Notes: a model not told the origin generated them from the letters alone. Shown: positions 1,966 through 49,005, numbered from the stretch's first letter. The stretch: 54,369 nucleotides of DNA from a virus (IMGVR_UViG_3300033148_002840:1-54369); one strand, 5' to 3'. Made by a program: numbers and translations.

Positions 1966-1981
1966 TTTGAAAAGTGAATGT

Positions 1982-2052
1982 GCCCCGCTGGTGCAAGGGC
2001 AGCATCTCAGCCTTTCGAGTTGAGGATGTAGGTTCGAATCCTACGCGGGGCA
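1982..2052 (+). tRNA. tRNA-Glu (TTC)
   Basis: Acceptor GCCCCGC/GCGGGGC; D stem GTGC/GCAT; anticodon arm TCAGC-CTTTCGA-GTTGA; T arm GTAGG-TTCGAAT-CCTAC; no encoded CCA. Confidence 0.9.
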
Positions 2053-2067
2053 GTAAAGGAGTTCAAT

Positions 2068-7537: not shown

Positions 7538-7547
7538 GAGATTAACA

Positions 7548-8087
7548 ATGTCACATGATTTTGGTTGGGCGTTTGAGCAGATGAAAAGGGGGGCGCACGT
7601 TTGTCTCCCTGCTGGTCGTGATAGTGATGAGTATTGGTATATCAAAGGTGGAAAAATATGGGTCCATCAGGACTCTCTCTCCGACGCCCCCCTGGGTTTT
7701 TGCATGGGACCAGTTATAGCGTCAACTAATTGGGAACTATACGAACCCAAACCCAAGGACGTATCACCCCCATTCAACGCTTTGGATGTAGCGCGATTGG
7801 TTGGGGAGGTCCCTACTGATGAGTTGGTGGCGATTCAAGATGCCGCTCGCGGGGAGCTAGCGAAGCGGGAGACCCCCCGCTTTTGCCACAGCTTTACATG
7901 GGCCGTAGGTAAACTGTTTGTTGGGCAGACAGTACAATATGTTAAATGGAATCGTTTAGCTTACGCTTGGTATGTGGCCCGAAACGGGCGGTTGTACCTA
8001 AAAGACAAATACGGTGGGGTAACATTTTGGTATCCTTCTATAGATGAGATGCGGTCCGTTAGCGGTTGGCGGTTATATACCAAGTGA
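7548..8087 (+). CDS. Hypothetical protein with two similar domains (DUF2829/Thoeris anti-defence Tad2-like, tentative)
   Basis: HDFGWAFEQMKRGAHV..NWELY and HSFTWAVGKLFVGQTV..PSIDEM..GWRLY. Confidence 0.6.
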   Translation: MSHDFGWAFEQMKRGAHVCLPAGRDSDEYWYIKGGKIWVHQDSLSDAPLGFCMGPVIASTNWELYEPKPKDVSPPFNALDVARLVGEVPTDELVAIQDAARGELAKRETPRFCHSFTWAVGKLFVGQTVQYVKWNRLAYAWYVARNGRLYLKDKYGGVTFWYPSIDEMRSVSGWRLYTK

Positions 8088-8113
8088 TACCTTAGTGTCT
8101 GGGAGACAATAAT

Positions 8114-8284
8114 ATGGTTCCATTACTGAAAGTGATGATGATACTGTTTGCAGCGATCGCGGGATCGTTAGGTGTTTCAATTTTTCTCTATGACTTGCAC
8201 CCTTTATGGTGGGGATGGGTCATTGCATCCTATGTGGCATCTCTGCTCTTGGGATTTGCCGTAGAGGGCTTAGCATCAAAATGA
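8114..8284 (+). CDS. 56-aa two-TM membrane protein
   Basis: GGGAGAC-N6-ATG; two hydrophobic segments. Confidence 0.6.
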   Translation: MVPLLKVMMILFAAIAGSLGVSIFLYDLHPLWWGWVIASYVASLLLGFAVEGLASK

Positions 8285-8301
8285 CACTAACGATCCAAGG
8301 G

Positions 8302-8330
8302 TTGACAAAGTGGCATCGCGGGCCTAGAAT
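8302..8330 (+). promoter_or_regulatory. Sigma70-type promoter
   Basis: TTGACA-17 nt-TAGAAT, 12 nt before the HTH gene ATG. Confidence 0.8.
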
Positions 8331-8342
8331 TAGGGTGCACGC

Positions 8343-8636
8343 ATGACAACTCCCGACAATAAAAAGTTCGCCGCCTGGGTCCGGGAGCATCGCACGGTTT
8401 CAATGCGGGACGCGGCCTATTTGGGGGACCTGCGGTATGACTCTTGGAGGCATCTGGAGACTGGGAAATGGGTGCCTGTGGCACTCTACACCTTTTATCG
8501 GATTTCGCTGGGGCTGCAACTTCCGATTGCTGTAGTGTTGGCTGCGGCTGTTGAGTGTGGGCTACATAAAATTGGGCGACCACGGTTGTTCGATCAAGAT
8601 GCCCCAGGACTTTTTTCTACTACGGAGGACCTATAA
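8343..8636 (+). CDS. XRE-like helix-turn-helix regulator
   Basis: FAAWVREHR..SMRDAA......WRHLETGK..P..TFYRISLGL. Confidence 0.7.
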   Translation: MTTPDNKKFAAWVREHRTVSMRDAAYLGDLRYDSWRHLETGKWVPVALYTFYRISLGLQLPIAVVLAAAVECGLHKIGRPRLFDQDAPGLFSTTEDL

Positions 8637-8959
8637 TGTTTAGTAGCCCGGCTACCTTAGAAACAAGAATCATTCAATGCGAGAAGAACATCATGGCGCT
8701 TATGGAGCATGTGGATACGCTCCGTTTACAAAAGGCCGTTTCTCCAATAGCTGACGACTGGAGAAAACTCATGGTACGTGAGCATAAAAGCGTTTTCATT
8801 GTTCTCACCGGCAGCCCAACAGATTTTAGTGATGAGATTCACGCCATCTTCACAACACAAGAGGTGGCAGACGCTTTTGTGGCTGCTCGCCCAGATGGTT
8901 ATTGCCACGTTGTCGAATGGGCAGTTGATGAGCCCGATATAAACTTTGGCAACCGATAG
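8636..8959 (+). CDS. Hypothetical protein
   Basis: GGAGG RBS; TAATG overlap. Confidence 0.7.
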   Translation: MFSSPATLETRIIQCEKNIMALMEHVDTLRLQKAVSPIADDWRKLMVREHKSVFIVLTGSPTDFSDEIHAIFTTQEVADAFVAARPDGYCHVVEWAVDEPDINFGNR

Positions 8960-8979
8960 GGCAGTTGATGAGGAGGACA

Positions 8980-9519
8980 ATGGTGACTAAACCACTCATG
9001 ATTCTGGTTGACACCCGAGAGAAGAAGCCACTATCTTTTCCTGGGCTTTATGGCCGCAACGCAAAATCGGTCGCCGTTAAGGCCGCAGATTATGCCTTCG
9101 AGGGTCTAGAAGGAATAGTAGGAATCGAAAGGAAAGTCGGTATCGACGAGCTTGCGGCGTGTGTAACGCGGCGATCTGGGTGGTCCCGACTCGGCAGTCA
9201 ATTAAGGAGACTATGCTGTGAATACTCAATCCCAATCCTCCTCACGGAAGCCAGCGCCTCCGAGATCATGTTCGGAGAGCCAAAAAAGTCCACCCTGTCC
9301 GGGACCGAAATCTTCCGGCGAACCTTGTCCACCTGCCTGCGGTTCGGAGTCACGCCCATCTTTGCGGGGGGGCGCGTCGCAGCAAGTCGCATCGTCATTA
9401 CCATCGGGGACACCATCTGGGACCTCAAAAGGCGCCGTGTTCGAGAGTTCAACGCTATCGTCGCCGCTCGGGACCGTGCGATTGCCGTTATCAATATCGC
9501 CCAGTCGGCTAAAGACTAG
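8980..9519 (+). CDS. ERCC4-domain nuclease (putative junction resolvase)
   Basis: ILVDTREK, ADY and GIERK motifs. Confidence 0.85.
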   Translation: MVTKPLMILVDTREKKPLSFPGLYGRNAKSVAVKAADYAFEGLEGIVGIERKVGIDELAACVTRRSGWSRLGSQLRRLCCEYSIPILLTEASASEIMFGEPKKSTLSGTEIFRRTLSTCLRFGVTPIFAGGRVAASRIVITIGDTIWDLKRRRVREFNAIVAARDRAIAVINIAQSAKD

Positions 9520-17088: not shown

Positions 17089-18002
17089 TGATGTCTATTG
17101 AATTGAAGCCGTGTCCAAATCCAGAATGTAGAGAGAAGAAGCCCAATCTGCGAATCGAAGGACACGAAGATGGTATCAGGTACGTCGAGTGTCATCATTG
17201 TGGCATGACCGGGCCTTCATCCTTTGGGAATAGTTTCTCGATTGGGTTGTGGAACAACCTGCCCCGTGAAGATAGCGAGACTGATAAGATATTGGCTGAT
17301 ATGGATCGAGATATAAAGGAGGCAGCAACCGCAGCCTTTTGTCCGGGGTTTTTCTCGCCCCGCGAAGACAAGACCGAGCCTGTCAAGCCCGAGAGGAAGT
17401 GCCCGCATTGTGGAGGTAATGTTATCCGTGGCTGTAATAGCGATGCGCAGTGGTGCCAATGTACCAACTGCTTTGCAGCCAGTCCTCACTGTTATCTCCT
17501 AAATGAAGCCTACGATGCGTGGTGGGCACCATTCAGGGCGCGAGATGTCGCGCCGGTTAACAAGAAGGTTGTAGAGGATAAACAAATGGCTAACCTGAAT
17601 GGATTTGACGCGCGCACTGTGGAACCCACCGCCAATTTTGAGCCAATTCCGGCGGGCAAGTATCTGGCAGCCATCACCGCCAGCGAAATGAAAACCACTA
17701 AGAAAGGTGACGGCGGCTACCTGCAACTGGAGTTCACCGTCCTCGACGGCGACTGCAAGGGCCAAAAGGTTTGGGATCGGCTGTGCATCAATCACCCAAA
17801 CGGCCTGACGCAGAAGATCGCAAGGGGCAATCTCTCGGCGATCTGTCGGGCGGTTGGGGTGATGCAGCCTTACGACTCGGTCGAACTTCACAACCTGCCG
17901 CTGTTGATCACCGTCAAGCTCAAGAAGTGTGAGGACACCGGCGAGCTGACCAACGAGGTCAAGGGCTACGCCAAGAAAGAGACGGCCGCCAGTCAGTCGT
18001 AG
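17088..18002 (+). CDS. Two Lar-like (restriction alleviation) Zn domains fused to a DUF669 SSB-like domain; internal start at 17586
   Basis: ELKPCP..YVECHHCG.TGP..WNN; CPHCGG..CTNC; MANLNGFDA..FEPIPAGKY..YLQLEF..NEVKGY. Confidence 0.8.
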   Translation: MMSIELKPCPNPECREKKPNLRIEGHEDGIRYVECHHCGMTGPSSFGNSFSIGLWNNLPREDSETDKILADMDRDIKEAATAAFCPGFFSPREDKTEPVKPERKCPHCGGNVIRGCNSDAQWCQCTNCFAASPHCYLLNEAYDAWWAPFRARDVAPVNKKVVEDKQMANLNGFDARTVEPTANFEPIPAGKYLAAITASEMKTTKKGDGGYLQLEFTVLDGDCKGQKVWDRLCINHPNGLTQKIARGNLSAICRAVGVMQPYDSVELHNLPLLITVKLKKCEDTGELTNEVKGYAKKETAASQS

Positions 18003-18066
18003 CTGGTTCTCAGCGCCCCACTGCCTACGCCGCGTGGTGGGCGCTATTCAGGGCGCGAGATGCCGC
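17508..18066. repeat. 44-bp imperfect direct repeat (17508-17551 and 18023-18066) flanking DUF669
   Basis: 39/44 identical. Confidence 0.9.
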
Positions 18067-30214: not shown

Positions 30215-30466
30215 CTAGTCTCCTTGCTTTTCCATGTCTTTTCGTATCCAATTGATATCCCGCTCCAATACGCTTAATCTGGCGGGTATCAACTGCACGA
30301 TTTCGGTTAGTGACTTTTGGGTGTTTTCGAGTGTGGATACTCGGGAGATCGTGGAGCCCCAGGCAACTCCAATTCCAATGAGAATCACGGCAACCGTGAT
30401 GATCCATGGAATGGGGTTACGAAGCCAGCCCCGAGAGTTCGCATTAGTGTGGTTTCCGTTGGTCAT
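30215..30466 (-). CDS. Holin-like single-TM plus coiled-coil protein
   Basis: WIITVAVILIGIGVAWG followed by a heptad pattern. Confidence 0.55.
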   Translation of the reverse strand: MTNGNHTNANSRGWLRNPIPWIITVAVILIGIGVAWGSTISRVSTLENTQKSLTEIVQLIPARLSVLERDINWIRKDMEKQGD

Positions 30467-31301
30467 AAAGGCCCTCCGAGCGTTCGTGATCTATGTCGAT
30501 GTTGCCCCATTCCTGGAGGGCTTGGGCGACGGCCTCATCGTAGGACATCCGGGGGAAGGCCGTTAGAGAGCTTCCTTCCGTACAATTATACACCGTGAAT
30601 CCTACCTTGTCAAAGTAGGGGCGGAGAGCCGTAAGTCGTGTGTTGACAAGGGTATACATCTGGTTGTTTCGATCGGCGGTGTGCTGGTCACGGGTTTGTG
30701 CGAAGTGGTAGGGTCTACCGGGAGACATTTTGAAGTCGGTGCCCAGGAGATAGACCGTTTTGATGCCCAGGATGTAGAGGAGCTTGAGAGCGGGAAGGAG
30801 GACGCTACGGCCCGGGAAGCCACCTTCGGGCGTGCCCCCCCAACAGAAGGAGTCCTCAACGAGGAAGTCCGCGGCCTTGAATATGTTGTTTCGCATGAAG
30901 AAGAAGACCCCAGGGCATTTTTCTATGGTGGTGGCCATTAGTTTCCACGCATCGCTGTCGAACACCTTTCGGTCGGCGTTAACCGCCGGGGTGAATTTTA
31001 GGATGGTGGGATCGAGCCAAATGGAGCGGAGGAATTGACAGGGGGAATCGAGGCCGACCCAAAGATGGGGGCGAATGGTCTTGGGCGCGTTGTTCATGGC
31101 TGCAATCAAGACTCCTGGGACCTGAAGTTTAGTTGTGTCTACGCTCTTGAGGGATGGGCCGCAGCCGACCAAGAACGCACTATGGCCCGCATAGAGTCCA
31201 TCGAGATTTGTGGGTCGGAATCTACTGGTGTAGAGCGCGGAGTGGATATTGGAGTGCTTAGCTATGATCTCGTGGTCGCGGGTATGCGGGCGAGCACTCA
31301 T
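30444..31301 (-). CDS. DUF115/Maf-like glycosyltransferase-family protein
   Basis: AFLVGCGPSL, AMNN, LGIKTVYLLGTDF, VYNCT..S.L.AFP. Confidence 0.75.
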   Translation of the reverse strand: MSARPHTRDHEIIAKHSNIHSALYTSRFRPTNLDGLYAGHSAFLVGCGPSLKSVDTTKLQVPGVLIAAMNNAPKTIRPHLWVGLDSPCQFLRSIWLDPTILKFTPAVNADRKVFDSDAWKLMATTIEKCPGVFFFMRNNIFKAADFLVEDSFCWGGTPEGGFPGRSVLLPALKLLYILGIKTVYLLGTDFKMSPGRPYHFAQTRDQHTADRNNQMYTLVNTRLTALRPYFDKVGFTVYNCTEGSSLTAFPRMSYDEAVAQALQEWGNIDIDHERSEGLYDQRKPH

Positions 31302-33082: not shown

Positions 33083-33766
33083 TTAGCCCTCCCACGGATC
33101 AAAACTATCGAAGCCTTCCGCCATTGGAGGGGCAGGCGCTGGGTGATTTCTGCCCTGGGTGTCTCGAATGCGACCAATTAGATCAGATAGGGCGGCATTG
33201 TATCGTCGGAGCATTCGCTCATGGATGGGGCCTTCCATTGAGGCTGATAGATCGCACGCTACACAGAGAGCGAGGACCTTCTTATCCAGGGTGTCGTTGC
33301 CATCATCCGTAGGTTGTGTAAAGGCCGCTTTTTGGATGTACTCTAGAACCCAGATTTCTCCTGTGGTGCCATCATCGTTTATGGGTGTCGGATACACATA
33401 GAGTAGTGGGGTCGTGGGTCCTGTAATCCAACAGCCCCGCTCTCCGGAGTAAGGACTCGTCGGAAATAGCTCATCGAGGATGTTATCCTTGTCAGGGTAC
33501 GTAGTGCTAGACCGCTGCGTGAGGCGAAGGAAGGACCGAAAATCACTGGGCAATGACGTATACGGGATGTCATCATGTAGGTACACATTAGTGGACTTGT
33601 ACCCAATGAAGTTCTCAGAACCGAAACTAGAGCGCACGATCTCCTCATTGATTTGATCGACAGCCATATCGACGAAAGGCTCGAGGTTGGTGGCTGCTGG
33701 GAACCGCCCTAAGATTGTTGGATCGTCGATGAGATTCCGAACGATGTTGAGTACAGTGATTGCCAT
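33083..33766 (-). CDS. Head-tail adaptor (tail tubular protein A-like)
   Basis: VRNLIDD..., YTSLPSDF, LYVYPTP, LEY; synteny. Confidence 0.65.
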   Translation of the reverse strand: MAITVLNIVRNLIDDPTILGRFPAATNLEPFVDMAVDQINEEIVRSSFGSENFIGYKSTNVYLHDDIPYTSLPSDFRSFLRLTQRSSTTYPDKDNILDELFPTSPYSGERGCWITGPTTPLLYVYPTPINDDGTTGEIWVLEYIQKAAFTQPTDDGNDTLDKKVLALCVACDLSASMEGPIHERMLRRYNAALSDLIGRIRDTQGRNHPAPAPPMAEGFDSFDPWEG

Positions 33767-34765: not shown

Positions 34766-36235
34766 TTAGCTCACGCTATACTGGTCGGAAACCTCTTCGA
34801 GTAGGGTCCAGACCGCGTTATTGAATGGCGCCTCGGACGCGAACTCCGCGTAGACACTGAAGGGCGCTTCCATCAGTGAGGAGCGCTGTGTAGCGCCCGC
34901 AGAGCTGCCCGCTTGGTAAGATACCGGGCTAAAGACACCACTGGGGCCGCCACCTGAACCCGTCAGATCGTTAATCCATTCGACGCCTTCAAGGCCGTCC
35001 GGTGTATAGCGAACGTTCGTCGGCTCATGGATACCCCACGCGCGTTCTGGCGTGGCGATTCTTGACGGTTTGATCGGGATTACGGTCTCACCAAAGGTGA
35101 CGTTATCACCTGTGGACTTACCGCCACCCGCCGACAACACACCGAGACCCGCAGAAGGTGACCACATCTGCATACCCTTGAGGGCTTCGGCGCGAGCGTG
35201 ACAGACACCCATTGAGGTGACGATCACGGTTGGGAGTTGACGGCCAGCCGTCCACATCTCAGTCAGCAATCGCTCAAACATGAGATTGCTGGCAGGACGC
35301 TTGTTGGTGCCACCTCCATTATCGACCCAGGCCCGCAACTCAGGGTTGTTGGTGAGATCGAGATTGAAGACGGTGCCGGTGTTTACGATCCAGTCCGGCA
35401 GACCAGAGCAAGCATTGCTGTTGGAGCCTGATGGGTCCGCCATGTAGAGACCATACTCCGTTGCCGTGGACAGCGTAACGGTCGTCGTACCATCCTCCGT
35501 CAGAACCAGGTCCACGGTTCCATTCGTAGACTTCGGGTTCACGGATTGGATGATGAAAACACCACCGGAAAGCTGACTATAGGTGGCCGTTGCGGAGATA
35601 GACACACGTTGACCGCGACGGAAGCGACCCGGAGGTGCATCCGTCAGTGTAATAGTATTCGTGTAGTCATTGTTAGGCGTCAGGTCGTTGAACACAATGT
35701 TGGAGCCGGGATCATAAATAGTCCCCAACTTCGCAGACTTGCCTACGTGCATTAGGGTAGCCATGTCTTGGGCGACGTTGAACGCCTGATCGGTGACAAC
35801 CATTGTTGCGATGTCGCCGAGGGTTGGACCCAGAGTCATACCCTTCAACTGATTGATGTCTAGTGCGCAATTGCCCATCAGCCACTTAAGGTAGATCATC
35901 TGGGTTAGGAATGTAGGTTGTGTCGCCTTACCCGCGCTCGGAAAAACCGTAGTTTCGGGAAGCATCGGAATACTGCCAACACCACCAGTGGCATGATTAA
36001 GCCCGTGGAAGTATTGGACACCGGAGCGTCCCATCCGAATGCGGTGCTTGGCAACGAAAGTGCCCGCACTGCCCGCAGCAGGGGTCGTGTCATCACGGCC
36101 CAACTGAGTCACCGCCTTGGTGTTCAGTTGCATGTTACGAGTAACAGGATCGACGTGACTCAGCACTTCAGTTAATGCTGGAGCAAGTCGCTCCTTCAGT
36201 AGCGGGCTGATTACCTGAATCGGGTAAACAGCCAT
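34766..36235 (-). CDS. Major capsid protein
   Basis: 489 aa after portal and scaffold; GL..WI..TGTVFNLD..NPE motif seen in podo-type capsids. Confidence 0.75.
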   Translation of the reverse strand: MAVYPIQVISPLLKERLAPALTEVLSHVDPVTRNMQLNTKAVTQLGRDDTTPAAGSAGTFVAKHRIRMGRSGVQYFHGLNHATGGVGSIPMLPETTVFPSAGKATQPTFLTQMIYLKWLMGNCALDINQLKGMTLGPTLGDIATMVVTDQAFNVAQDMATLMHVGKSAKLGTIYDPGSNIVFNDLTPNNDYTNTITLTDAPPGRFRRGQRVSISATATYSQLSGGVFIIQSVNPKSTNGTVDLVLTEDGTTTVTLSTATEYGLYMADPSGSNSNACSGLPDWIVNTGTVFNLDLTNNPELRAWVDNGGGTNKRPASNLMFERLLTEMWTAGRQLPTVIVTSMGVCHARAEALKGMQMWSPSAGLGVLSAGGGKSTGDNVTFGETVIPIKPSRIATPERAWGIHEPTNVRYTPDGLEGVEWINDLTGSGGGPSGVFSPVSYQAGSSAGATQRSSLMEAPFSVYAEFASEAPFNNAVWTLLEEVSDQYSVS

Positions 36236-37215: not shown

Positions 37216-39081
37216 TTAAGCTTCCGCGGCAAGTTCCTCTCCGAGGGCTTCCGCATCTGACATTTCTGCGATTTCGTCAATGTCTGGACCGGCGGGGTCT
37301 CCTGACATTTCTATGGCATACTCGGTCATACGTTGCACAAAGGCCGCTTTTACCTCGGGAGCAGCAGCCAAATTGAACATGGGATCGGATACAAAGTCCT
37401 TGAATACACGGATCACACGGGGGACATCCACGAATTGTGGCATGGGTTCGGGGAGCTGTCCGGGTAGTTTCCAATCACCCGCGAGGACCTGGCATTCACT
37501 CATGGCGAGGATTTCAGAGTTGGTTATGAGGTCTACACCCGGTAAATTATAGTTGATGGCGGCCAGACCCCGACGGAATTCTATGGGGTCTATGGCTTGC
37601 GTATTGAGCATTCCGATGAGGTCCTGGACGGTGTCTTCTGTGGCGTCTGTCGTGATCGAACCGGGGAGAACCTGAGTTTCTTGGGAGGCTAATAGTTGCG
37701 GGGTTACGGACATCGTTAGCGGAAGATTAAAGGTGCCCAGGTAGCTCATTATGCGCTCATCTTTGGGGTCCCATTTGCGGGCGGCCATCTGGAGTACCAT
37801 TCTACTAAGGCCAGTAAGGACGTCGCTTACTTCACGGGCGGGCTGCGAGGAGGGAGCGCCGGTCTCACGTTTAAGGAGTTGGAGGCCAGCAAAAGAATCC
37901 ACGCGACCGGGGGCATCCCCTTCGGTGAGTTCGGGCTGGTTGGCCATGCGACGGATCATATCGGTAACGGTACCCATGAGAAGTTGGCCGCGAGGGCTCT
38001 GGCGAGCAGACGATACAGTATGGAAGGGTTGCGTGCTACCGAAGATGTTATGCGAGCGATATTGAACGACGGGGGATGGGTCGTTGCCCTTGAGGTCGTT
38101 CATTACGATGGAGCCCTCAGGCGCTAGTGTGAAGTTCTTTTCTTGGATGCGGGCACGAATCTCTAAGGAGAGTTGGCGATTGAGTTCACGGTTGAGTTGC
38201 GTGATCGGCCACACATAAGACATCCCGAACCAGTTATTTAGAGAGGGCGCGAAGCGGCCGGTAACTATGGGTAGCGCGCGCTCGTGTGGACTCTTCCAGT
38301 AGTCGAGTTGGCCAGCACGGGCGGCAAGCTGCTCGTGGACTACAATGGCCTCTTCACCTTGAGGGAAATCGGGGTTCGGTAGTGAGTAAAACCAATGTAC
38401 CCAGACGCCCTTCTTCAGTAGGGGGTGGTGGGACTCCCCGGAGCCGCTTACTGATGGGGAGCCGCCCTCGCCCTTTTCCAGCTTATCGGCAAGTTCTGGG
38501 AAGACCGCCTGTACCCAACTTTTTGGCATCACGCGGGAGCGAATGATTCCCGTCATGTCGTTATCTTGGAGGACACCACCGGGGACTGGGTAGAGTTCCC
38601 ACGCGGGGACGGCGCCAATTCGTATCTGTCCACGACCAGCCTCGGCGTTGGGGTCCCAAGAGATTTGGAAGGCCGCAGTCCCACAAACATGAAGAAACCG
38701 AATGAACGCACAGTACTCTCGTGGGAAGTTAATTGAGTCCTGTTCGATGAGGGACTTGAGGACGGCTTCTTGCATACGAGATGCAAAGATCGGCCCAGGT
38801 GCAAGATTTCTGGGACTGACCTTTATTTTAGGTGGAGATTGTATCCAACGGCTCAAGGCGCGAAGATAACGATTGTGGACCTCCATTATGATGGCGCGGA
38901 CCTCGCCGGGCTTGGGGTCTGCAAGACGGCGAACGGTTCGAGATTCCCGGCTTGCTTTTATCCAGTGGTCGCCATCGAGCATCGCAATGTTGACCTGCCA
39001 TTGGTGCTCGGGGTCCTTACGGGCAGCATAAGAGTCCCGTTGAGACTTCTTGACAAAGGTTACAAGGTCCTGATCGTTCAT
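37216..39081 (-). CDS. Portal protein
   Basis: 621 aa; LDGDHW, VCGTAAFQISWDP, WFGMSYVWPITQLNRELN, G..PGRV.S..GL..L. Confidence 0.85.
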   Translation of the reverse strand: MNDQDLVTFVKKSQRDSYAARKDPEHQWQVNIAMLDGDHWIKASRESRTVRRLADPKPGEVRAIIMEVHNRYLRALSRWIQSPPKIKVSPRNLAPGPIFASRMQEAVLKSLIEQDSINFPREYCAFIRFLHVCGTAAFQISWDPNAEAGRGQIRIGAVPAWELYPVPGGVLQDNDMTGIIRSRVMPKSWVQAVFPELADKLEKGEGGSPSVSGSGESHHPLLKKGVWVHWFYSLPNPDFPQGEEAIVVHEQLAARAGQLDYWKSPHERALPIVTGRFAPSLNNWFGMSYVWPITQLNRELNRQLSLEIRARIQEKNFTLAPEGSIVMNDLKGNDPSPVVQYRSHNIFGSTQPFHTVSSARQSPRGQLLMGTVTDMIRRMANQPELTEGDAPGRVDSFAGLQLLKRETGAPSSQPAREVSDVLTGLSRMVLQMAARKWDPKDERIMSYLGTFNLPLTMSVTPQLLASQETQVLPGSITTDATEDTVQDLIGMLNTQAIDPIEFRRGLAAINYNLPGVDLITNSEILAMSECQVLAGDWKLPGQLPEPMPQFVDVPRVIRVFKDFVSDPMFNLAAAPEVKAAFVQRMTEYAIEMSGDPAGPDIDEIAEMSDAEALGEELAAEA

Positions 39082-39841: not shown

Positions 39842-41656
39842 CTAGGGTAAGGATAGCGCGTCTTCTTGAACGCGACCCATAGAACGCTGTTTGCGGCGTT
39901 GGACGGCCGCATAATAGCCCACGTCTCCTGCATTATAGACGTGTACAGGGTTCAAGCCCATCGCTTCCATTTCCTCCTCTGTCGGGAGGTTATCGGGCTC
40001 CTTGGACTCCTCACGACCGAGACCAGCGCCAAGTGCCTCCAAAACATTTACGAGGGCATCCAGCATATCATCATGCGTTTGACCCAAGCTTTCCGCGGAG
40101 AAGGTCTGAATCTGTCGGATGAGGTCTTCTTGCCCGCGCGCCCTCAGTTTAATTCTATTCGCGTCAAACCGCCATTGCAAGCCCAAGATTCGGACGCCCT
40201 TGCCCATCGCTTTACCATAGTGCTCTAGGGTACGAATGGTGGGGACGTGATCCTTGCGGGCTCTGGCCTCCCGAATGTGGTCTTGTACGAGGTCTAGAGC
40301 GAGCTTTTGAAAGGCGTTGGTTTCTATGCCTAGGACTACAGCTTTGAAGCGGGCCGCAATCATCAAGGCACGGAGAAGGACGCGACCGGGGTGCTCACGT
40401 CCTCTCCAGGTATCTAGGACCCATAGGGTGTTATCGGCGTCAACGCCCCCTGTGATTATGGAGGAGTAGTCCGCGGTGGTCCGACGCGAGATGGCAAGGT
40501 CTACGCCCACACCAACCAGGAGACGTTCCTTCCAATCAGAATAGGACTCCTTTTTCTCGGTAAGGACATTAAAGGTGAAGCGTTTTTCGCCTTCGTCGAG
40601 GACGCGATAAGTGTGCCGAATGGGACGGAAATCAAGGGTGGAGGCCTCACCGCGAGCGGGCTCATTTTGGTATTCTGCGTAAAATGATGCCAGTCCGAAG
40701 CCCTGCACACGGCCATCCGGGGAGCCCCCTCCCATCATATAACGAATGTCTTTCATGGGGTAGCGATCTGGCCACGCAGATGTGTCCTCACCATCATCGC
40801 TTTTGGTAAGTAGCTTATAGATGCCAGTCGCGTATCCACTGAACCGCGTATCCTCATGGTGGACTACCCGATAGAGAAGAGCCCTGGGGACCAGCAGAGT
40901 GCCAATCCAAGACAGATGGCAGCTAGTTGAAACAATTGGCAGGAAAGTCTGAAAGAACCAATGATCGAACTTGGCTAAGAGGGCATCGCTGCTAACGCCC
41001 TCATCGCGCTCGGGATCATCGAGGATGGCCCATGTTGTACGCAGGCCACGTTGGTGGGAGCCAACCGAGAAGTTCTGTACGAGCGCTCGGTTGGGTAGTT
41101 CTAAGCGGCCAGGGCTCCAAGCTCTACCGGAGAAACGCTTAGCTTTGAGGCGACCCATATCGGGCTCGAAATCACGCATGAGAAGTTCATTTTCCTCGAA
41201 CTGTAGCTGCATGGAGGCCATACGGAGGTTTCCGAGGCGTTCATTTGACATTACAAGGAGGACTTCAGTTCGCGGGCGGGAAAGCATCAGGAACATTGGC
41301 AGTCGCCAGCTAAACTTTGTGCTCTTTGCGGAGTCACGAAAACCTGCGATCGCAGAGCGGTAGCGTGATGAGATCAACAGGTCCCACTCATGGTGCATGG
41401 GAGCGTTCTTAAAGGTATAGAGGTGTTTGTTTCCGGACCACCCTTTGAGGTAGTATTCCTCGAACCAATTGAGGCAGAGCGCAAAGAGATTGGGGTTAGC
41501 TATACGCAAGAATGGGGAGTCTAAGTCCGCCCAGAGTGAGCAGGCGGCGACACGGGCCTGCCGACGGCCGTCCGCGGTCAGGTGCGGGTAGTCATCAGGC
41601 AGTGGAAAGAGGTCGCCCTTAGTTCTATGAACTTTTTGTGTCTGGGGGGTCGTCAC
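39842..41656 (-). CDS. terL: Terminase large subunit
   Basis: FRDSAKST, RGLR, ILDDPE, IGT, AEYQNEP, GVDLAIS..ADYS, HDDMLDAL. Confidence 0.92.
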   Translation of the reverse strand: MTTPQTQKVHRTKGDLFPLPDDYPHLTADGRRQARVAACSLWADLDSPFLRIANPNLFALCLNWFEEYYLKGWSGNKHLYTFKNAPMHHEWDLLISSRYRSAIAGFRDSAKSTKFSWRLPMFLMLSRPRTEVLLVMSNERLGNLRMASMQLQFEENELLMRDFEPDMGRLKAKRFSGRAWSPGRLELPNRALVQNFSVGSHQRGLRTTWAILDDPERDEGVSSDALLAKFDHWFFQTFLPIVSTSCHLSWIGTLLVPRALLYRVVHHEDTRFSGYATGIYKLLTKSDDGEDTSAWPDRYPMKDIRYMMGGGSPDGRVQGFGLASFYAEYQNEPARGEASTLDFRPIRHTYRVLDEGEKRFTFNVLTEKKESYSDWKERLLVGVGVDLAISRRTTADYSSIITGGVDADNTLWVLDTWRGREHPGRVLLRALMIAARFKAVVLGIETNAFQKLALDLVQDHIREARARKDHVPTIRTLEHYGKAMGKGVRILGLQWRFDANRIKLRARGQEDLIRQIQTFSAESLGQTHDDMLDALVNVLEALGAGLGREESKEPDNLPTEEEMEAMGLNPVHVYNAGDVGYYAAVQRRKQRSMGRVQEDALSLP

Positions 41657-42952: not shown

Positions 42953-42981
42953 CGTAACCCCCTTCTGCTCAAGGGGTTACG
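42953..42981. promoter_or_regulatory. Palindromic IHF-like site
   Basis: CG-TAA-cccc-CTT-ctgct-CAA-gggg-TTA-CG. Confidence 0.5.
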
Positions 42982-43200: not shown

Positions 43201-43815
43201 TCATGGCCTCCACTCTCGGCTGTACCCAAAGGTATTGAAATCTTCGTCGCACCACTCACGGATGAGAGCGGCACGCTCCTCATTCATGTAGTGTGTCCAG
43301 GACTTTCTTGCATGAGAAGGATTCGACACGGGAACTTTAATGTCTGGCTGCCAAAATGGCAACGTTATAAGGTCCCTCTCTAGAGACTCCAAGCGCAGCG
43401 TTCTGTCGAGTTTAACATCGCGCAGCCATCGCGTTTGCGTGATCGCAAGATGTCGCCCTACAAGCATATGAGGTTTAGTCAACAAGAAGTGTAAAAACTT
43501 CGTGAAATCCGTGGTGCCTAATTCCACGTAACAATACTTCTGTTTGAGGGTCTTTGTCGGGTCTACGGTTGTTGACCACCAAAGGGAGACCGCGCGAGCA
43601 TAGGGATTCCGCACAATTGACCATGTAAAGAGGTCGCGGTACTCCTTGGGCACTACATTAGAGTGGAATGGCCTTGGGCGAGAGCCTTTTTTTAGTACCC
43701 CATTTACCAAAAAGTAGCCATCCGGGAACACCTTGGGGAGTAGCTCCCACATACTATTGGTGGCACATTTGGTCGTGGAGACGAATACGAATTTATCGTG
43801 TGGGCTAATAAACAT
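43201..43815 (-). CDS. Sulfotransferase family 2 protein
   Basis: FVFVSTTKCATNS (5'-PSB-like), SIVRNPYARAVSLW (3'-PB-like), RLESLERD, EDFNTFGY. Confidence 0.85.
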   Translation of the reverse strand: MFISPHDKFVFVSTTKCATNSMWELLPKVFPDGYFLVNGVLKKGSRPRPFHSNVVPKEYRDLFTWSIVRNPYARAVSLWWSTTVDPTKTLKQKYCYVELGTTDFTKFLHFLLTKPHMLVGRHLAITQTRWLRDVKLDRTLRLESLERDLITLPFWQPDIKVPVSNPSHARKSWTHYMNEERAALIREWCDEDFNTFGYSREWRP

Positions 43816-43816
43816 A

Positions 43817-44395
43817 TTAGGGTCTCACAAAAAACCAGGTCATTGTCTCTGGGGGGCCGAGAAGCAGAGAACCAGGGTTGTTAGAGAGATATTTTTCTAC
43901 TGCTTGCCGGACACGCCAATTAAAGGTCTTGGCGTGTCTACGGGGGTTGTCTATATCGTGTCCACAAACCACGCCACCATGTTTTACCTTTGGAGTCCAT
44001 ACTTGAATGTCACTGAGAACTTCAGGATATTGGTGCCCGGCGTCAATAAATACGAAATCGAAGAAATCAAGGGGAAAATCTTTTGCCGCAAGTAGGGAAG
44101 GCTTTTTAACTACGGAGCGTCTATTGCTAAATGGTGATGTTTTATCTAGGGCTTCTCGGTGCACTTTATCCCACCACTTTTGTGGGCGGAACCCCTCTCG
44201 CAATTCACAATCTAATGTTTGATTGGTTTTCCACGTATCAACCATTACAAGATGTAAATTTGCAAAAGTGGTAAGGAGCCACTTGGATAATGCACCACGG
44301 TAGACGCCTATCTCAGCAGCATTTCGCACATCTTTTGGCGCCCAATTAAGGTGATCTTTGATGGCGTGCGCTACATCTTCTTGCGGCGTAGTCAT
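43817..44395 (-). CDS. Class I SAM methyltransferase (Methyltransf_24)
   Basis: AEIGVYRG, VDTW, FDFVFIDAGH.Y, VKHGGVVCGHD. Confidence 0.88.
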   Translation of the reverse strand: MTTPQEDVAHAIKDHLNWAPKDVRNAAEIGVYRGALSKWLLTTFANLHLVMVDTWKTNQTLDCELREGFRPQKWWDKVHREALDKTSPFSNRRSVVKKPSLLAAKDFPLDFFDFVFIDAGHQYPEVLSDIQVWTPKVKHGGVVCGHDIDNPRRHAKTFNWRVRQAVEKYLSNNPGSLLLGPPETMTWFFVRP

Positions 44396-44397
44396 TA

Positions 44398-45723
44398 TTA
44401 TACTTTCCTCCCGCTACTGCCTTCGATGCCCCACAGGTGGACGGCATAGGGGTCTTTCTTTCCAAGCATCTCTATACGGGCGGCTTCGGGCGCTTTCCAA
44501 AAGGCCCGCGCTTTCTCACGTTCCCGCCAGGACCACGGATAAAAATAACTCCACGGTAGGATGCGCATATCACTATCGCCGTTTTCTGTAAAGAGTCCAG
44601 TTAGCATACTTGGTCCGAAGCGTGTGCGAGGGCGGCGCTCCGTCTCCGGCGTTATCTTCGGTATTCTGGCAAGGCACCGCATGAACGCATTACTGTGGCG
44701 AATAGCACCCATACACCCATTGGTTAGCTTCTTAGAGCCCTCGTGGAGTGTAGTCCAGGCAGGTCCCTTCTTGCGCAGCGGATCAAAACTTTTACGTGTT
44801 ATAAGATCAGTATTGAGGGTGACACCACCATAATGATAGAGTAGCCAACAGTATAAGATATCGGCGCGTTGACAAAGTTGTTCACAACTAGACCATGCGG
44901 GGACCAAATCATCCTGAAATGTTGGGGGGCGCCCCGTCCACAGATTGATCTTCCAACGAGGATTATGCGCTCGAAAGGCGTCCATAATACCTTGAAGCCA
45001 ATTGGGTTTAGGCCCCAACCACACAAAGTGCGCGATCCGTGGTATAATGTTGGGTAAATCGGCGTCCTGAACGTACGTGTAGTCAATGTCTAATAGTTTG
45101 CACTCTTCTTCTTGCAGGTTGCGGAGTTCTGGAAAGATACCTTGCCCTCGACCACTGGATAGTATGGACAATCGGGGATCATAGGGACTTCCTAGTTTAG
45201 AAGGAGTGTTTCCGTCGCACCCAATGTACACGATCTCGGAGGCGCCACAAATCCACGCGAAATGTGTGGCTAGATGACACACGCTTCCGGCCTTATATAA
45301 TGACCCGGACACAGCCGCTTCCTCTCTAGAGAGTTTGAGTAGACTTTTATCCTTGTATCCACTCCAATCATATCCAACGATTGTGCCATGTTCAGTGGGA
45401 TTGAGGTCCCGCGCGAAGATACGACCTCGATTGTGAATGTGTTCGATGCCTGCTGGCGGGTTCTTGGTCGGTCCCTGGGGTAAGACAAGTGTACTCGTTC
45501 TATTCGATGTGAGGAGCACCTTCATGGATTTGTGGGCCGTTACCAAGAAAGTCTCAATGGATTTAGTCACCTTATCTTCTAGGAGGACAGCATCATTCAA
45601 GAAGATGATGGGGTCCGTTATCTTCGTTAGGTTCTCATAGTCGTAGGGGGTAATGCCCTTACCCACAATTATGAATCGGTAACCAGCGTACTTATTGAGA
45701 TAATCTTTGAGAGTTAGCATCAT
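44398..45723 (-). CDS. DUF115/Maf-like domain fused to a GT32 glycosyltransferase
   Basis: FIIVGKG, FLND, EIVYIGCD; IPRIAHFVWLG, ADIL..WLLYHYGGV.L.TD. Confidence 0.82.
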   Translation of the reverse strand: MMLTLKDYLNKYAGYRFIIVGKGITPYDYENLTKITDPIIFLNDAVLLEDKVTKSIETFLVTAHKSMKVLLTSNRTSTLVLPQGPTKNPPAGIEHIHNRGRIFARDLNPTEHGTIVGYDWSGYKDKSLLKLSREEAAVSGSLYKAGSVCHLATHFAWICGASEIVYIGCDGNTPSKLGSPYDPRLSILSSGRGQGIFPELRNLQEEECKLLDIDYTYVQDADLPNIIPRIAHFVWLGPKPNWLQGIMDAFRAHNPRWKINLWTGRPPTFQDDLVPAWSSCEQLCQRADILYCWLLYHYGGVTLNTDLITRKSFDPLRKKGPAWTTLHEGSKKLTNGCMGAIRHSNAFMRCLARIPKITPETERRPRTRFGPSMLTGLFTENGDSDMRILPWSYFYPWSWREREKARAFWKAPEAARIEMLGKKDPYAVHLWGIEGSSGRKV

Positions 45724-46403
45724 TCACTCGCTCTTGGGGCGCCAACTTCACGAAAAGTCTTAAATAGGTGCAGCCCAAATGGGGGAACCCCATCTACCCA
45801 CTTGGATTTAGTGCTATCTAGAAGGATTTTGCGCTCCGTTAGGGATGCTTTCCAAAACTTCCTACAGTCTTCAGGCTCCGGTAAAACATTGAAATAGTGT
45901 GCGGGGAGAAGCTCCATCATTCCATGAGAGCAGCAGTAGTGTACTAGCCGGGCACCCCTCCCTGTATGGTGTTTGGATAGTTGCTCCTCACGCTTCATGT
46001 AGACATCAACCAAGAATCTGAAGGCCGCGCATCCCTGTTGCCCACCTAAGACGCCATTATAACAGGCGTTCTTAGTTTGATGCCAGGCATAGGTAAACGC
46101 CGTGTACTTCAATAGCGGGTTGAATGATCGGAAGGTTATCACATCGGAGTCAACATAGACGCCGCCGTAAGTCGAAAGCAACCAATATCGTATTATGTTA
46201 CTCTTCTTTGAGAAGATGGGGTTTTCATCACACCGACAGCGGAGGGCCGTTGGGAACCTGTCAGGAACGTCCTCCCACAATTTTACTTCCCAATCGGGGT
46301 GAAATTGTCGAAAGGTCTCCATGTTCGCGGTCGCCCATGCAGGGGGTGGCGACCCCAACCAGATGAAGTGACATAGTTTTGGGATCATTCTAAGGGTCCC
46401 CAC
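45720..46403 (-). CDS. GT32 (DXD) glycosyltransferase
   Basis: MIPKLCHFIWLG, HPDWEVKLW, IIRYWLL..YGGVYVDSD. Confidence 0.9.
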   Translation of the reverse strand: MGTLRMIPKLCHFIWLGSPPPAWATANMETFRQFHPDWEVKLWEDVPDRFPTALRCRCDENPIFSKKSNIIRYWLLSTYGGVYVDSDVITFRSFNPLLKYTAFTYAWHQTKNACYNGVLGGQQGCAAFRFLVDVYMKREEQLSKHHTGRGARLVHYCCSHGMMELLPAHYFNVLPEPEDCRKFWKASLTERKILLDSTKSKWVDGVPPFGLHLFKTFREVGAPRASE

Positions 46404-46968: not shown

Positions 46969-47382
46969 GGTATCTCCAAGCGCAACGTACTCAATACGTT
47001 CATACTTCTACAACCATAAGATTGTACTTTTCCGTTGGCACTGATGGCTTAAAGTTTGGGTACAACGCCCGCACGTCAAAACAATGCTTGGTAAACTTAA
47101 CTGGGTACTTTTTCAACAGCCACCGAGGAAACCAGCGGTCCTTAAAAGCCTGCCACCAATCAGATGGGTGCGATATAGATAGAGCGTCTACCCGTTCGCC
47201 CCAGACGAACCCACGAACCTGCGCAATGATGTCACCTGCTGCGTGTTCCAGGAAGGTGGCCTCCGTCTCACATAGATAACGATCGAGTCTTTGGCTGAGT
47301 CCAACACAAAATTTCTCCAGGCGGACTGTTCTGAAATCGGAATTCATTATGGTATCTCCAAGCGCAACGCACCTAATACGTT
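46969..47382. repeat. 32-bp imperfect direct repeat (46969-47000 and 47351-47382)
   Basis: 29/32 identical; duplicates the protease 3' end. Confidence 0.9.
47000..47347 (-). CDS. Hypothetical phage protein
   Basis: P.DWWQAFK.RWFP.WLLKKYPV; coupled to neighbours. Confidence 0.75.
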   Translation of the reverse strand: MNSDFRTVRLEKFCVGLSQRLDRYLCETEATFLEHAAGDIIAQVRGFVWGERVDALSISHPSDWWQAFKDRWFPRWLLKKYPVKFTKHCFDVRALYPNFKPSVPTEKYNLMVVEV

Positions 47383-48408
47383 GAGCGCCGTGTTTGCGAT
47401 CGTTATCTGTTCGGAGCCAGCAAACAACAGGCCAACGAGCGTTGCGCGGCCGTGATCGCTACCTATTGTTACGATTGCACTACCGGAATCGCCGCCCTGA
47501 CTCATAGCGCTCAGTAGAATCTGGTCCTCGAAGGTTGCAATCTTTCCACTACCGTAGTTGACCTTGACGGTAGCTCCCGTGTACTGTACGACGCCGGTTG
47601 TGGTTTCCGTGGTGCGACCCCTCTTGTATACTATATCGCCTGGGAACGCGGGTGCAAAGTCATCTATTGGTGACCAGCCCGTTCCAACAAATTCATCGGT
47701 GATATCATCGAGTTTTGTGGGCATTGCATAGGCGGCGTCTACTAGATTTACGTCGCTTCTAATCGAGGTAGCAATGAGACGAGTTTTGCGGCCCGTAGCC
47801 CACAATACGAGATTCATAACCTTGGTAGCAGCCTTAACAACGGGGCATTTATTAGGCTCCTCACTGAATGATATCGGAATGTACCCGTGTAGCGTTCCAA
47901 TTCTACTAAACGCGGCGAAACCACCATCCGCAGGTCCGGGCTGCAAAATGGCGTCCCCGATCTTGGCGGCATTACTATTGGCTAAGACATGGTTATTGGA
48001 GACAATGACGGGGACTTTTGTGCCCCCCGGGCGCGCAACGAATCCGAACGTCCCGGCTGTAATGTCCTTGTGTCCGATACTCACCCCTGGGAATGCCGGT
48101 CGATGTCGCTTCTTGAGATTAACTGCTTTTGGGGACGCGCTGAGCGCCCAAATGTCACCAACTTCGACGACATCCGTTCTATATGGATGCAGTTTAAGTC
48201 CGCACTCCAATGAGACTTGCGTTGGGATCATTGTCTCCGTGGTTAGCGCACTAGGCGGCAGCTTCTTACGTACAAAGAATACTACAGCTTGTATACTGGT
48301 GGGACGACCACCGCGCTTCTTAGTACCCTTGGCGACCCCTACGATATTGGAGTCGGTCAGGAGTTTACGAATGGTGGCGCTTTTTGCGAATTGGGAATCG
48401 GACTTCAT
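47347..48408 (-). CDS. Trypsin-like serine protease (Nal1-like)
   Basis: Catalytic triad SNNHVL, VDAA, GGDSGS; AGTFG, LQPG..DGG, KRGRTT. Confidence 0.88.
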   Translation of the reverse strand: MKSDSQFAKSATIRKLLTDSNIVGVAKGTKKRGGRPTSIQAVVFFVRKKLPPSALTTETMIPTQVSLECGLKLHPYRTDVVEVGDIWALSASPKAVNLKKRHRPAFPGVSIGHKDITAGTFGFVARPGGTKVPVIVSNNHVLANSNAAKIGDAILQPGPADGGFAAFSRIGTLHGYIPISFSEEPNKCPVVKAATKVMNLVLWATGRKTRLIATSIRSDVNLVDAAYAMPTKLDDITDEFVGTGWSPIDDFAPAFPGDIVYKRGRTTETTTGVVQYTGATVKVNYGSGKIATFEDQILLSAMSQGGDSGSAIVTIGSDHGRATLVGLLFAGSEQITIANTALNVLGALRLEIP

Positions 48409-48734: not shown

Positions 48735-49005
48735 GAGTTTCCTCGCAGAACTCTTTTGTTTGATTTATGAAGTCTTCCCAATTCTTTCCACATTCTGGGC
48801 ATCCACCAATCGACTGCATATATTTTGTTGAGAAGATCGTCCCGCACATCGCACACTGGACGACGCCTCTCCTGATTCGTGTGGGACTAAAACGAAGGGG
48901 TGCTCCAGATTGCCGTGCATTTAGGTCGATCTCCACGATAATGTCGCTTTGGTACCCTATTTTAGGCTCTAAACCCCAAATTGTCAACGCAAAAAGCGGC
49001 CCCAT
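48676..49005 (-). CDS. Zn-ribbon protein
   Basis: CAMC..CPEC; start uncertain. Confidence 0.55.
   Translation of the reverse strand: MGPLFALTIWGLEPKIGYQSDIIVEIDLNARQSGAPLRFSPTRIRRGVVQCAMCGTIFSTKYMQSIGGCPECGKNWEDFINQTKEFCEETHGQEDDIFGGAGSPGCGRG

Follow-up and report, generated by a model that had tools for sequence, protein, structure and literature searches.

The window analyzed here, a stretch of 54,369 nucleotides, is the complete 54-kb genome of an uncultured phage with 114-nt repeats at its termini. Its minus strand carries a cassette at 43201-46403 that encodes a stand-alone GT32 glycosyltransferase (GT32a; 45720-46403, 227 aa), a Maf-like-GT32 fusion protein (44398-45723, 441 aa), a methyltransferase (43817-44395, 192 aa) and a sulfotransferase (43201-43815, 204 aa). 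A sequence-only reading of the genome had described four tightly coupled genes in this region, and all four ORFs were recovered on that strand with the same ends. The first two overlap by an ATGA (45720-45723) and the remaining junctions are gaps of 2 nt and 1 nt, so that neighbors overlap or lie no more than 2 nt apart. None of the cassette proteins has a hydrophobic segment (maximum Kyte-Doolittle 19-residue mean ≤1.24), and all four enzymes are predicted to be soluble. The GC content of the cassette is 46-50%, versus 55% for the TerL, portal and major capsid protein genes.

The cassette is located beside the packaging genes, as had been claimed, and upstream of them, with TerL (39842-41656; phrog_38, 2.4e-48) on the side of its downstream end, yet a 353-nt gap with a terminator-like hairpin intervenes. 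This hairpin (42953-42981, minus strand), which has the sulfotransferase gene on one side and the small genes preceding TerL on the other, consists of an 11-bp stem with 6 GC pairs followed by T7; it is a consensus match only, and the region is not enriched in terminator-like sites (5 versus 7.4 in shuffles). A promoter-like site at 48959-48987 (minus strand; TTGACA, 17 nt, TAAAAT; 11/12 matches), also a consensus match only, stands at the start of the series of minus-strand genes to which the cassette belongs, although such sites number 9 against 8.5 expected and the consensus may not be of the host's promoter type. Because a terminator of its own appears to close the cassette, its expression may not be late. 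It is not adjacent to the capsid gene in this phage.

The 227-aa GT32a protein exceeds the gathering cut-off of PF04488 (Gly_transf_sug; 2e-11, 44.9 bits against 23) and retains an intact DXD motif (D85-S86-D87). Translation may in fact begin at residue 6, which is also an ATG. It shares 30% identity over 215 aa with the C-terminal domain of the fusion protein (E 6e-25), and Caps_synth (PF05704) appeared as a weak Pfam co-hit in the cassette scan.

The N-terminal half of the fusion (about residues 1-222; 45058-45723, minus strand) is predicted to form a Rossmann-type domain of the Maf/MptE/sialyltransferase-like kind, with the conserved motifs VGKGxT, FxNDAV, HFAWxCG and IGCDG. Its description as Maf-like held at the level of fold and found no counterpart in Pfam: residues 1-225 gave no match at E≤0.01, the fusion does not reach the gathering cut-off of MptE-like PF01973 (34.6 bits), and 4/42 family members scanned score 16.9-21.2 bits with that model. 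In the AF2 model of the fusion (pLDDT 94.6), residues 1-299 superposed on Maf (5mu5) with a VIA-align Z of 13.0 (184 aligned, rmsd 3.7); for the MptE HPPK 8sd5 the Z was 11.4 (residues 1-219, 163 aligned). Sialyltransferases followed with Z of 8.5 (5bo8), 8.4 (2wnf) and 8.3 (2p56), and thiamine pyrophosphokinase with 7.8. The domain may not be a glycosyltransferase, because this fold is common to pyrophosphokinases (MptE, thiamine pyrophosphokinase). At ~225 aa its match to Maf, a chain of 632 residues, is limited to residues 260-517, and the full Maf architecture is not present. Judged by fold only, the Maf-like domain might use a nonulosonic-acid donor; no CMP-sugar synthetase (PF02348) is encoded in this genome.

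The C-terminal half (about residues 224-441; 44401-45054, minus strand) is a predicted GT-A glycosyltransferase of the GT32/GT44 type. Its PF04488 match is confined to residues 252-318 and, at 20.7 bits, lies just below the cut-off of 23, a cut-off that is passed by 15/15 long fusion homologues scanned (27.0-56.8 bits). At the DXD position it has N304-T305-D306 (nt 44806-44814), and among 39 aligned GT32 domains 37 have D-x-D, with N-x-D found only in the window's fusion and in homologue P0002. Degenerate DXD sites had been named as grounds for rejecting the earlier reading; that of GT32a is intact, whereas that of the fusion is degenerate, and the fused GT32 domain may be inactive.

The best fold matches of this domain by VIA-align were 6rtg (YGT; Z 17.2), TcdA 4r04 (16.5), and YeGT and SetA (entries 8ovs and 8x4m, both 15.8), with SetA also found by Foldseek (1.9e-5), and sequence-profile searches returned the same set of toxin/effector glycosyltransferases. 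We take these enzymes to modify cytoplasmic proteins, and their prominence in both searches would fit a role in which the GT domains act like effectors, glycosylating a cytoplasmic protein of the host or a non-virion phage protein to seize or protect the infected cell. We consider this quite improbable, however, since fungal Och1 (9n3s), a glycan mannosyltransferase, fits nearly as well (Z 14.2; PBCV-1 A64R-D1, 2p6w, reached 11.8), since the obligate association, by pairing and by fusion, with an O-methyltransferase of the sugar type and the frequent one with a sulfotransferase of the carbohydrate type point to a decorated glycan and not to a single inactivating sugar, and since related phages carry the module among their head genes. 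Nothing here suggests a toxin function for the phage GT32 proteins.

The methyltransferase and sulfotransferase assignments of the sequence-only reading, like that of GT32a, were borne out by Pfam scores above the cut-offs. The 192-aa protein matches Methyltransf_24 (PF13578; 2.1e-16, 61.1 bits against 26.3), and two fused homologues (P0017 and that of locus L014) reach the cut-off of 23 for TylF (PF05711) with 23.3 bits. By these matches it is a class I SAM-dependent methyltransferase of the TylF/CmcI-like kind and probably a sugar O-methyltransferase. It also matches phrog_2675 (7.6e-20), which is labeled 'DNA methyltransferase', and phage enzymes of the GT-A and GT-B types are known to glycosylate 5hmC (bioRxiv 10.1101/2023.12.21.572611). 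Both points are compatible with the idea that the cassette hypermodifies phage DNA to evade restriction, a hydroxymethylated base being glycosylated and then methylated or sulfated. The 5hmC-glycosylating pathways described in the available text of that source adjoin genes for a C5-cytosine methyltransferase and 5mYOX, or ThyS-type genes. In a six-frame search of this genome with working controls, neither PF00303 (thymidylate-synthase-like) nor PF00145 (C5-methyltransferase) was present; PF12851 (Tet_JBP) was also searched, with a control that gave no signal, and Pfam scans of the replication genes contained no companion hydroxymethyl-pyrimidine enzymes. The methyltransferase itself falls in Methyltransf_24/TylF-type families and has no visible DNA-binding feature. 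DNA modification, raised earlier as an alternative, is accordingly unlikely, and we give DNA as the substrate only a very slim chance.

The 204-aa protein matches Sulfotransfer_2 (PF03567; 4e-5, with 24.3 bits where the cut-off is 22) and phrog_3347 (4.7e-4). The Pfam domain is also found in homologues P0182 and P0184 and, with 27.5 bits, in the L014 copy. Foldseek returned nothing at E≤1e-3 for the AF2 model (pLDDT 91.6), and VIA-align placed heparan sulfate 2-O-sulfotransferase 3f5f first (Z 10.2, 170 aligned), with sulfotransferase-family entries throughout ranks 1-23. In an alignment of 11 sequences K16, R69 and R74 are invariant, H51 nearly so, and S77 is present in 9/11; the PAPS site, whose degeneration would have spoken against the earlier reading, is thus conserved. 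The corresponding window motifs, T-T-K-C-A-T-N-S and V-R-N-P-Y-A-R-A-V-S, resemble the PAPS-binding signature, a 5'-PSB Lys in a PKxGxT-like loop and a 3'-PB Arg...Ser. The protein is predicted to be a carbohydrate sulfotransferase and would depend on PAPS. All donors of the pathway (nucleotide sugars, SAM and PAPS) would presumably be supplied by the host.

A second Maf-like gene had been noted at 30444-31301, and it is a real gene (minus strand, 285 aa) surrounded by those for the virion. Its DUF115/MptE-like (GT42-like) product scores only 21.1 bits with PF01973 against the cut-off of 34.6, a domain detected in 3/22 of its homologues; it matches phrog_4603, 'alpha-2,3-sialyltransferase' (1.8e-8), and weakly Cst-II (E 0.03-0.07). 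Comparison of its family profile with that of the fusion N-domain gave an hhalign E of 1.9e-5 (probability 77%, 147 columns), by which it is a distant paralogue of that domain. Among the virion genes is also an SU10-type major capsid protein (34766-36235, minus strand, 489 aa), whose look-alikes in the Atlas are SU10_MCP clusters (score 0.97-0.98, TM 0.70). This protein contains 19% Ser+Thr, with an S/T-rich stretch at about residues 231-260, and could be considered a candidate glycan acceptor. No common Ser/Thr-rich C-terminal tail was seen on the virion proteins of the window or the capsid proteins of related loci.

The related loci L002-L018 were searched by tblastn with 35 window proteins as queries, and only the four cassette proteins found matches; structural proteins common to the window and these phages were not detectable by this search. 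Linkage among relatives, the lack of which would have counted against the earlier reading, is conserved. The methyltransferase follows the fusion in 12/13 loci with enough downstream sequence, the exception being L007, which ends inside a sulfotransferase gene, and a sulfotransferase is present in five of the eight loci with ~1.4 kb or more downstream. The activities are often merged: the N-domain, GT32 and Methyltransf_24 form a single protein in 9/15 long family representatives and in L003, L013 and L014, while GT32-MT and ST-MT fusions occur in L006 and L011, respectively. That cassette activities are frequently combined in one polypeptide is a new observation.

The position of the module in other phages is also new. 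It begins directly after Phage_cap_E capsid and Mu-gp36-like genes in four loci (L003, L006, L010, L011), directly after a gp36-like gene in three (L012, L013, L015), and in L014 it follows the capsid gene. The lambda-like L002 has it flanked by head genes (gpA terminase, S49-capsid fusion) on one side and by tail genes (Minor_tail_Z, tail tube) on the other. Counted by their head genes, at least two lineages besides that of the window have the module immediately behind the genes for the capsid or for head completion. In cells it is rare: a scan of 185,579 species genomes for the module pattern returned 3 loci, and the full-length fusion was detected in 2/401 Planctomycetota genomes, both times on short contigs. 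Among 50,697 phage records, a tblastn search with the fusion gave only two partial matches, both to the GT32 domain and both in uncultured records. The fusion and methyltransferase constitute a mobile, mostly phage-borne module.

We propose that the phage-borne cassette was acquired horizontally and that it most likely glycosylates a virion protein in the cytoplasm and decorates the glycan with methyl and sulfate groups, an explanation to which we assign about an even chance. It is favored by unrelated phages in which this set of enzymes comes immediately after the capsid gene; the neighborhood of module and head genes is an association only. The solubility of the enzymes, the lower GC of the cassette and its rarity in cells also speak for it, while the N-T-D of the fused domain, the pyrophosphokinase-like fold of the N-domain and the lack of a common Ser/Thr-rich tail speak against it. 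Among the nearest solved folds of the GT32 and Maf-like domains are entries whose titles give toxins or effectors that glycosylate proteins (TcdA, SetA, YeGT) or the flagellin glycosyltransferase Maf, enzymes that act on proteins. The virion-coat reading put forward earlier thus gains from the homologous modules after capsid and head-completion genes and from the recurrent fusions, but not from the present phage, in which cassette and capsid gene lie apart.

Soluble glycosyltransferases also make lipid-linked envelope glycans, and the enzymes could instead remodel a glycan of the host envelope (LPS, capsule, exopolysaccharide or surface glycoprotein) during infection. Such remodeling could block superinfection or the trapping of progeny on debris, with sulfate or methyl groups masking the receptor. 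The GT32, Sulfotransfer_2 and TylF-like methyltransferase families are ordinary in cellular polysaccharide pathways, with which the weak PF05704 co-hit agrees; the cassette is moron-like, with promoter-like and terminator-like sites of its own and a different GC content; and its soluble glycosyltransferases could use lipid-linked intermediates. Against this, the cassette lacks a flippase, a polymerase, a polyprenyl-phosphate glycosyltransferase and any membrane protein, and the module, which other phages carry in between their head genes and their tail genes, is rare in cellular genomes. No integrase was found in this genome, and there is therefore no setting for lysogenic seroconversion. On balance we regard envelope remodeling as unlikely.

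Under virion decoration, the first sugar would be put directly on a virion protein during particle assembly by one of the GT domains, the candidates being GT32a, with its intact DSD, or the Maf-like domain. The remaining GT domains, including the paralogue at 30444-31301, would then lengthen the chain, the TylF-like methyltransferase would O-methylate a sugar, and the Sulfotransfer_2 enzyme would add sulfate from host PAPS. What the analysis shows are the folds and families of the enzymes, the conservation of residues at their cofactor sites, the conserved linkage and fusions, and the proximity to head genes in other phages; the acceptor, the order of these steps, the sugars and the activity of the N-T-D domain are what we infer.

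Chloroviruses and, of the phages, mycobacteriophages are established cases of viruses that encode the enzymes which glycosylate their own particles. [quoted passage not shown] The likeness, to the extent covered by that text, is that of a tailed phage with its own tandem glycosyltransferases and O-methyltransferase. The present module differs in having a Maf/MptE-fold domain fused to GT32 and a sulfotransferase, in being known from genes alone, and in a host that is apparently not actinobacterial. In PBCV-1, the three-domain protein A064R joins two rhamnosyltransferases, the first of the GT-A type, to a 2-O-methyltransferase, and builds the capsid N-glycan with A061L (PMC9614988, available text). 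Its GT-GT-methyltransferase order parallels that of the N-domain, GT32 and MT in the fused relatives of the window's protein (the 9/15 long representatives), and its first domain is among the GT32-domain fold matches given above (2p6w). Unlike the present phage, PBCV-1 is a giant virus with a eukaryotic host, its second GT domain belongs to another fold family, and the available account of its pathway describes no sulfotransferase; the methyltransferase of the window is a separate gene.

Compared with Magnetospirillum Maf, the fusion N-domain superposes on the central domain and shares the G-x-G-P-S/T and (I/L)G-x-D motifs of the Maf/DUF115/GT42 group, but it lacks the Maf flanking domains, is below the PF01973 threshold and has no flagellin context, with no flagellar gene in the Pfam scans of the window. 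The GT32/GT44 enzymes (retaining GT-A enzymes such as Och1, the large clostridial-type toxins and Legionella SetA) share with the phage proteins the GT-A fold, the HFxW(L/I)G uridine-stacking motif and the GG-x-x-x-D-x-D region. The phage proteins differ from the toxins in that they are minimal catalytic domains of ~220 aa with no delivery or targeting parts, and in the N-T-D of the fused copy.

More broadly, and only tentatively, tailed phages of several unrelated head lineages, this one included, may coat their particles with a self-made, short, O-methylated and sulfated glycan that is started by protein-directed GT32 and Maf-fold transferases. If the module does act in this way, self-glycosylation would prove common in environmental phages whose head types differ considerably, the Maf-fold domain and GT32 would be newly linked to it, and a bacterial virus would for the first time be known to have a sulfated glycoprotein capsid. 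Sulfation would alter the surface charge of the particle and could affect adsorption, aggregation, grazing and host recognition. The conserved fusions (Maf-like-GT32-MT, GT32-MT and ST-MT) are compact, expressible proteins with which the chemistry can be tested without phage culture.

In hosts that harvest sulfated polysaccharides, a sulfated coat, if present, could serve adsorption or camouflage; the earlier reading had suggested a shield or food mimicry. The planctomycete host implied by that reading is not supported: the only signs of it are two short contigs of Planctomycetota MAGs that carry the module and the source names of two homologues of the 285-aa DUF115-like protein. TerL found only matches of ≤45% identity over partial stretches in 25/401 genomes of that phylum (≤32% among the six best).

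The four genes of the cassette were found on the minus strand at 43201-46403, where the sequence-only reading had placed them, with junctions consisting of one ATGA overlap followed by gaps of 2 and 1 nt. Its domain calls also held for the stand-alone GT32 glycosyltransferase (GT32a, 227 aa), the Methyltransf_24 methyltransferase (192 aa) and the Sulfotransfer_2 sulfotransferase (204 aa), each of which exceeds its curated Pfam cut-off. The remaining product, a 441-aa protein (44398-45723, minus strand), had been described as a Maf-like-GT32 fusion. Its C-terminal half scores 20.7 bits for GT32 against a Pfam cut-off of 23, and Pfam recognizes nothing in its N-terminal half. An NCBIfam search returned nothing for the cassette, and a PADLOC search returned nothing.

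An AlphaFold2 model of the fusion, built on a 49-sequence alignment, was confident (pLDDT 94.6, pTM 0.92). Structure comparison of this model identified residues 224-440 as a GT-A domain nearest to GT44/GT32-type enzymes, with matches to 6rtg (Z 17.2), TcdA (16.5), YeGT (15.8), SetA (15.8), Och1 (14.2) and PBCV-1 A64R-D1 (11.8). For the N-domain, the best match is Maf, a flagellin glycosyltransferase (5mu5; Z 13.0 over model residues 1-299); next comes MptE, a pyrophosphokinase of archaea (8sd5; Z 11.4 over residues 1-219), with sialyltransferases ranking after both (Z 7.6-8.5). The Maf-like designation is thus sound as a statement of fold, whereas membership of the Maf family is borne out neither by HMM nor by architecture. 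A single-sequence PDB match of the fusion to Kelch proteins at E 0.036 was dismissed as chance. The 285-aa product of the second DUF115/MptE-like gene (30444-31301, minus strand) has a weak MptE-like match and a weak match to a PHROG annotated as sialyltransferase; its family profile aligns with that of the fusion N-domain at an hhalign E of 1.9e-5, and weakly with Cst-II (E 0.03-0.07).

The fused GT32 domain carries N304-T305-D306 at the position where 37 of 39 aligned family GT32 domains show D-x-D. The window fusion and P0002, a family protein 69% identical to it, are the two exceptions, both with N-x-D. The uridine-stacking HFxWLG and ADI(L) motifs are retained in the fused domain. GT32a, an intact GT32 paralogue (30% identity) with D85-S86-D87, is encoded directly upstream of the fusion, and the presence of this extra copy beside the N-T-D domain would fit compensation or a division of labour. 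The sulfotransferase family shows invariant K16, R69 and R74 and a nearly invariant H51, and S77 occurs in 9 of 11 sequences. The sulfotransferase model (pLDDT 91.6) best matches heparan sulfate 2-O-sulfotransferase (Z 10.2), and structure matches ranked 1-23 are all sulfotransferase-family entries; Foldseek with the same model gave no match at E<=1e-3. PDB sequence searches yielded nothing useful for the sulfotransferase, the methyltransferase, the portal, the major capsid protein or a 306-aa protein.

A fusion-family profile search of 1.84 billion representatives returned 109 proteins at E<=1e-30, and seven full-length relatives lie outside the window's own cluster (37-69% identity over 99-100% of the query). 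The best matches to the fusion (69%), the 285-aa protein (81%) and the sulfotransferase (62%) probably all derive from a single near relative of this phage. No usable locus came from IMG/VR scans that each took one protein as query (TerL, portal, PolA or the 285-aa protein). The fusion is rare in cellular genomes: screening 185,579 species genomes with a pattern found three fusion loci, two of them on short contigs of Planctomycetota MAGs, and two of 401 Planctomycetota genomes had the full-length protein. A tblastn search of 50,697 phage records found no full-length homologue in any cultured phage, the matches being two partial ones to the GT32 domain in uncultured records. The window's TerL had only partial matches, in 25 of 401 Planctomycetota genomes, at <=45% identity (<=32% among the six best), which does not inform on the host.

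Nineteen loci with a fusion homologue were taken for comparison, comprising 5 viral, 12 metagenomic and 2 from MAGs. When 35 window proteins were queried by tblastn against loci L002-L018, only the four cassette proteins were matched, which indicates that these phages are unrelated and have the module in common. Of 13 loci with enough sequence beyond the fusion, 12 have a Methyltransf_24 gene or domain after it and the thirteenth stops within the sulfotransferase gene; a sulfotransferase is present in five of the eight loci having at least about 1.4 kb of downstream sequence. N-domain, GT32 and methyltransferase form one polypeptide in 9 of 15 long representatives, and also in L003, L013 and L014; L006 has a GT32-methyltransferase fusion with the N-domain encoded separately, and in L011 the sulfotransferase is fused to the methyltransferase. 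Such fusions argue for a single substrate shared by the activities. At the contig ends of L004 (11207-11726) and L006 (11624-11758), a second Maf-like N-domain comes after the GT32-methyltransferase fusion. The L011 contig, a fragment of a Mu-head-type phage, also encodes a GSCFA-family protein (PF08885, 8.6e-32) that accompanies the module, the pair of this protein and the 487-aa sulfotransferase-methyltransferase fusion lying at 6651-7664 and 7980-9443.

The module lies directly after a Phage_cap_E capsid gene and a Mu-gp36-like gene in four loci with Mu-type head genes (L003, L006, L010 and L011), directly after the gp36-like gene in L012, L013 and L015, after the capsid gene in L014, and between head and tail genes in the lambda-like L002. 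Several of these loci are near-duplicates, so that they represent about five or six independent lineages rather than nine. In L003, a gene with an ART-PolyVal ADP-ribosyltransferase domain (5314-5802; PF18760, 2.6e-15) adjoins the Mu F-like head gene.

We consider the chances about even that the cassette serves to build and tailor a glycan on a virion protein. This reading is favored by the head-gene neighborhood in unrelated phages, by the enzyme fusions, by the near absence of the module from cells and by the solubility of the enzymes. The cassette proteins have no hydrophobic segment, and remodeling of the host envelope by these enzymes is regarded as unlikely. For each of the two transferase domains, the closest solved structures include some titled as protein glycosyltransferases, which again favors a virion protein as substrate; protein glycosylation of an effector-like kind is improbable. 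Hypermodification of phage DNA is more doubtful still, to the point of being very improbable: the DNA-glycosylation literature (bioRxiv 10.1101/2023.12.21.572611) gives ThyS-like and C5-methyltransferase genes as companions, and neither was found in the genome, which weakens this explanation. In a Tet_JBP search of the genome, the control itself gave no signal.

Two precedents lend support by analogy to modification of the virion. [quoted passage not shown] Virus-encoded virion glycosylation is already known, and what is distinctive here is the Maf-fold-GT32 fusion, the linked sulfotransferase, the altered DXD in this lineage and the unusual site upstream of the packaging genes. At the level of titles and abstract openings, the literature searched contained no description of this module.

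The SU10-type major capsid protein (34766-36235, minus strand) is a candidate acceptor. It has 489 aa, compared with 390-456 aa in most of the look-alike clusters listed. Serine and threonine make up 19% of it, and an S/T-rich stretch near residues 231-260 is possibly an inserted surface domain. No Ser/Thr-rich C-terminal tail common to the virion proteins was evident. An alternative acceptor could be a putative decoration protein of about 250 aa encoded just 5' of the capsid gene in four module loci (L003, 7062-7820; L006, 7252-8010; L011, 2493-3248; L014, 46-687, 213 aa). These proteins share an F-x-F-D-D-like C-terminus, and the L003 copy weakly matches the lambda head decoration protein D.

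In this phage the cassette does not follow the capsid gene but lies upstream of the packaging genes, and downstream, in the same minus-strand run, of a trypsin-like protease gene and three small ORFs. The protease (353 aa; 47347-48408, minus strand) heads this run; it has a GDSGS serine-protease motif, a match to phrog_20754 'protease' (6.1e-48) and a weak NAL1_N match, and tblastn found no counterpart in L002-L018. By consensus match only, a promoter-like site lies near the start of the run (48959-48987) and a strong terminator-like hairpin (42953-42981) between the cassette and the small genes preceding TerL. The cassette has a GC content of 46-50%, compared with 55% in the TerL, portal and capsid genes, which fits recent acquisition.

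The window spans an entire IMG/VR record (54,369 bases). Its first and last 114 bases are identical, so that it represents a complete or terminally redundant phage genome. Its minus-strand genes include TerL (39842-41656; phrog_38, 2.4e-48), a P22/SU10-type portal (37216-39081) and an SU10 adaptor (33083-33766; PF24175, 1.7e-10); no integrase was found in the window. Pfam scans of the plus-strand replication module identified a UDG-PolA fusion, a PD-(D/E)XK nuclease, AAA_24, MazG and DUF669. The 797-aa ORF at 5144-7537 (plus strand) unites a uracil-DNA-glycosylase-superfamily domain, a 3'-5' exonuclease and a family A DNA polymerase. One tRNA-Glu gene (anticodon TTC; 1981-2053, plus strand) is situated among small early ORFs. 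A 44-nt direct repeat (17508-17551 and 18023-18066; 89% identical, 515 nt apart) is located at the switch from plus-strand replication to minus-strand virion genes.
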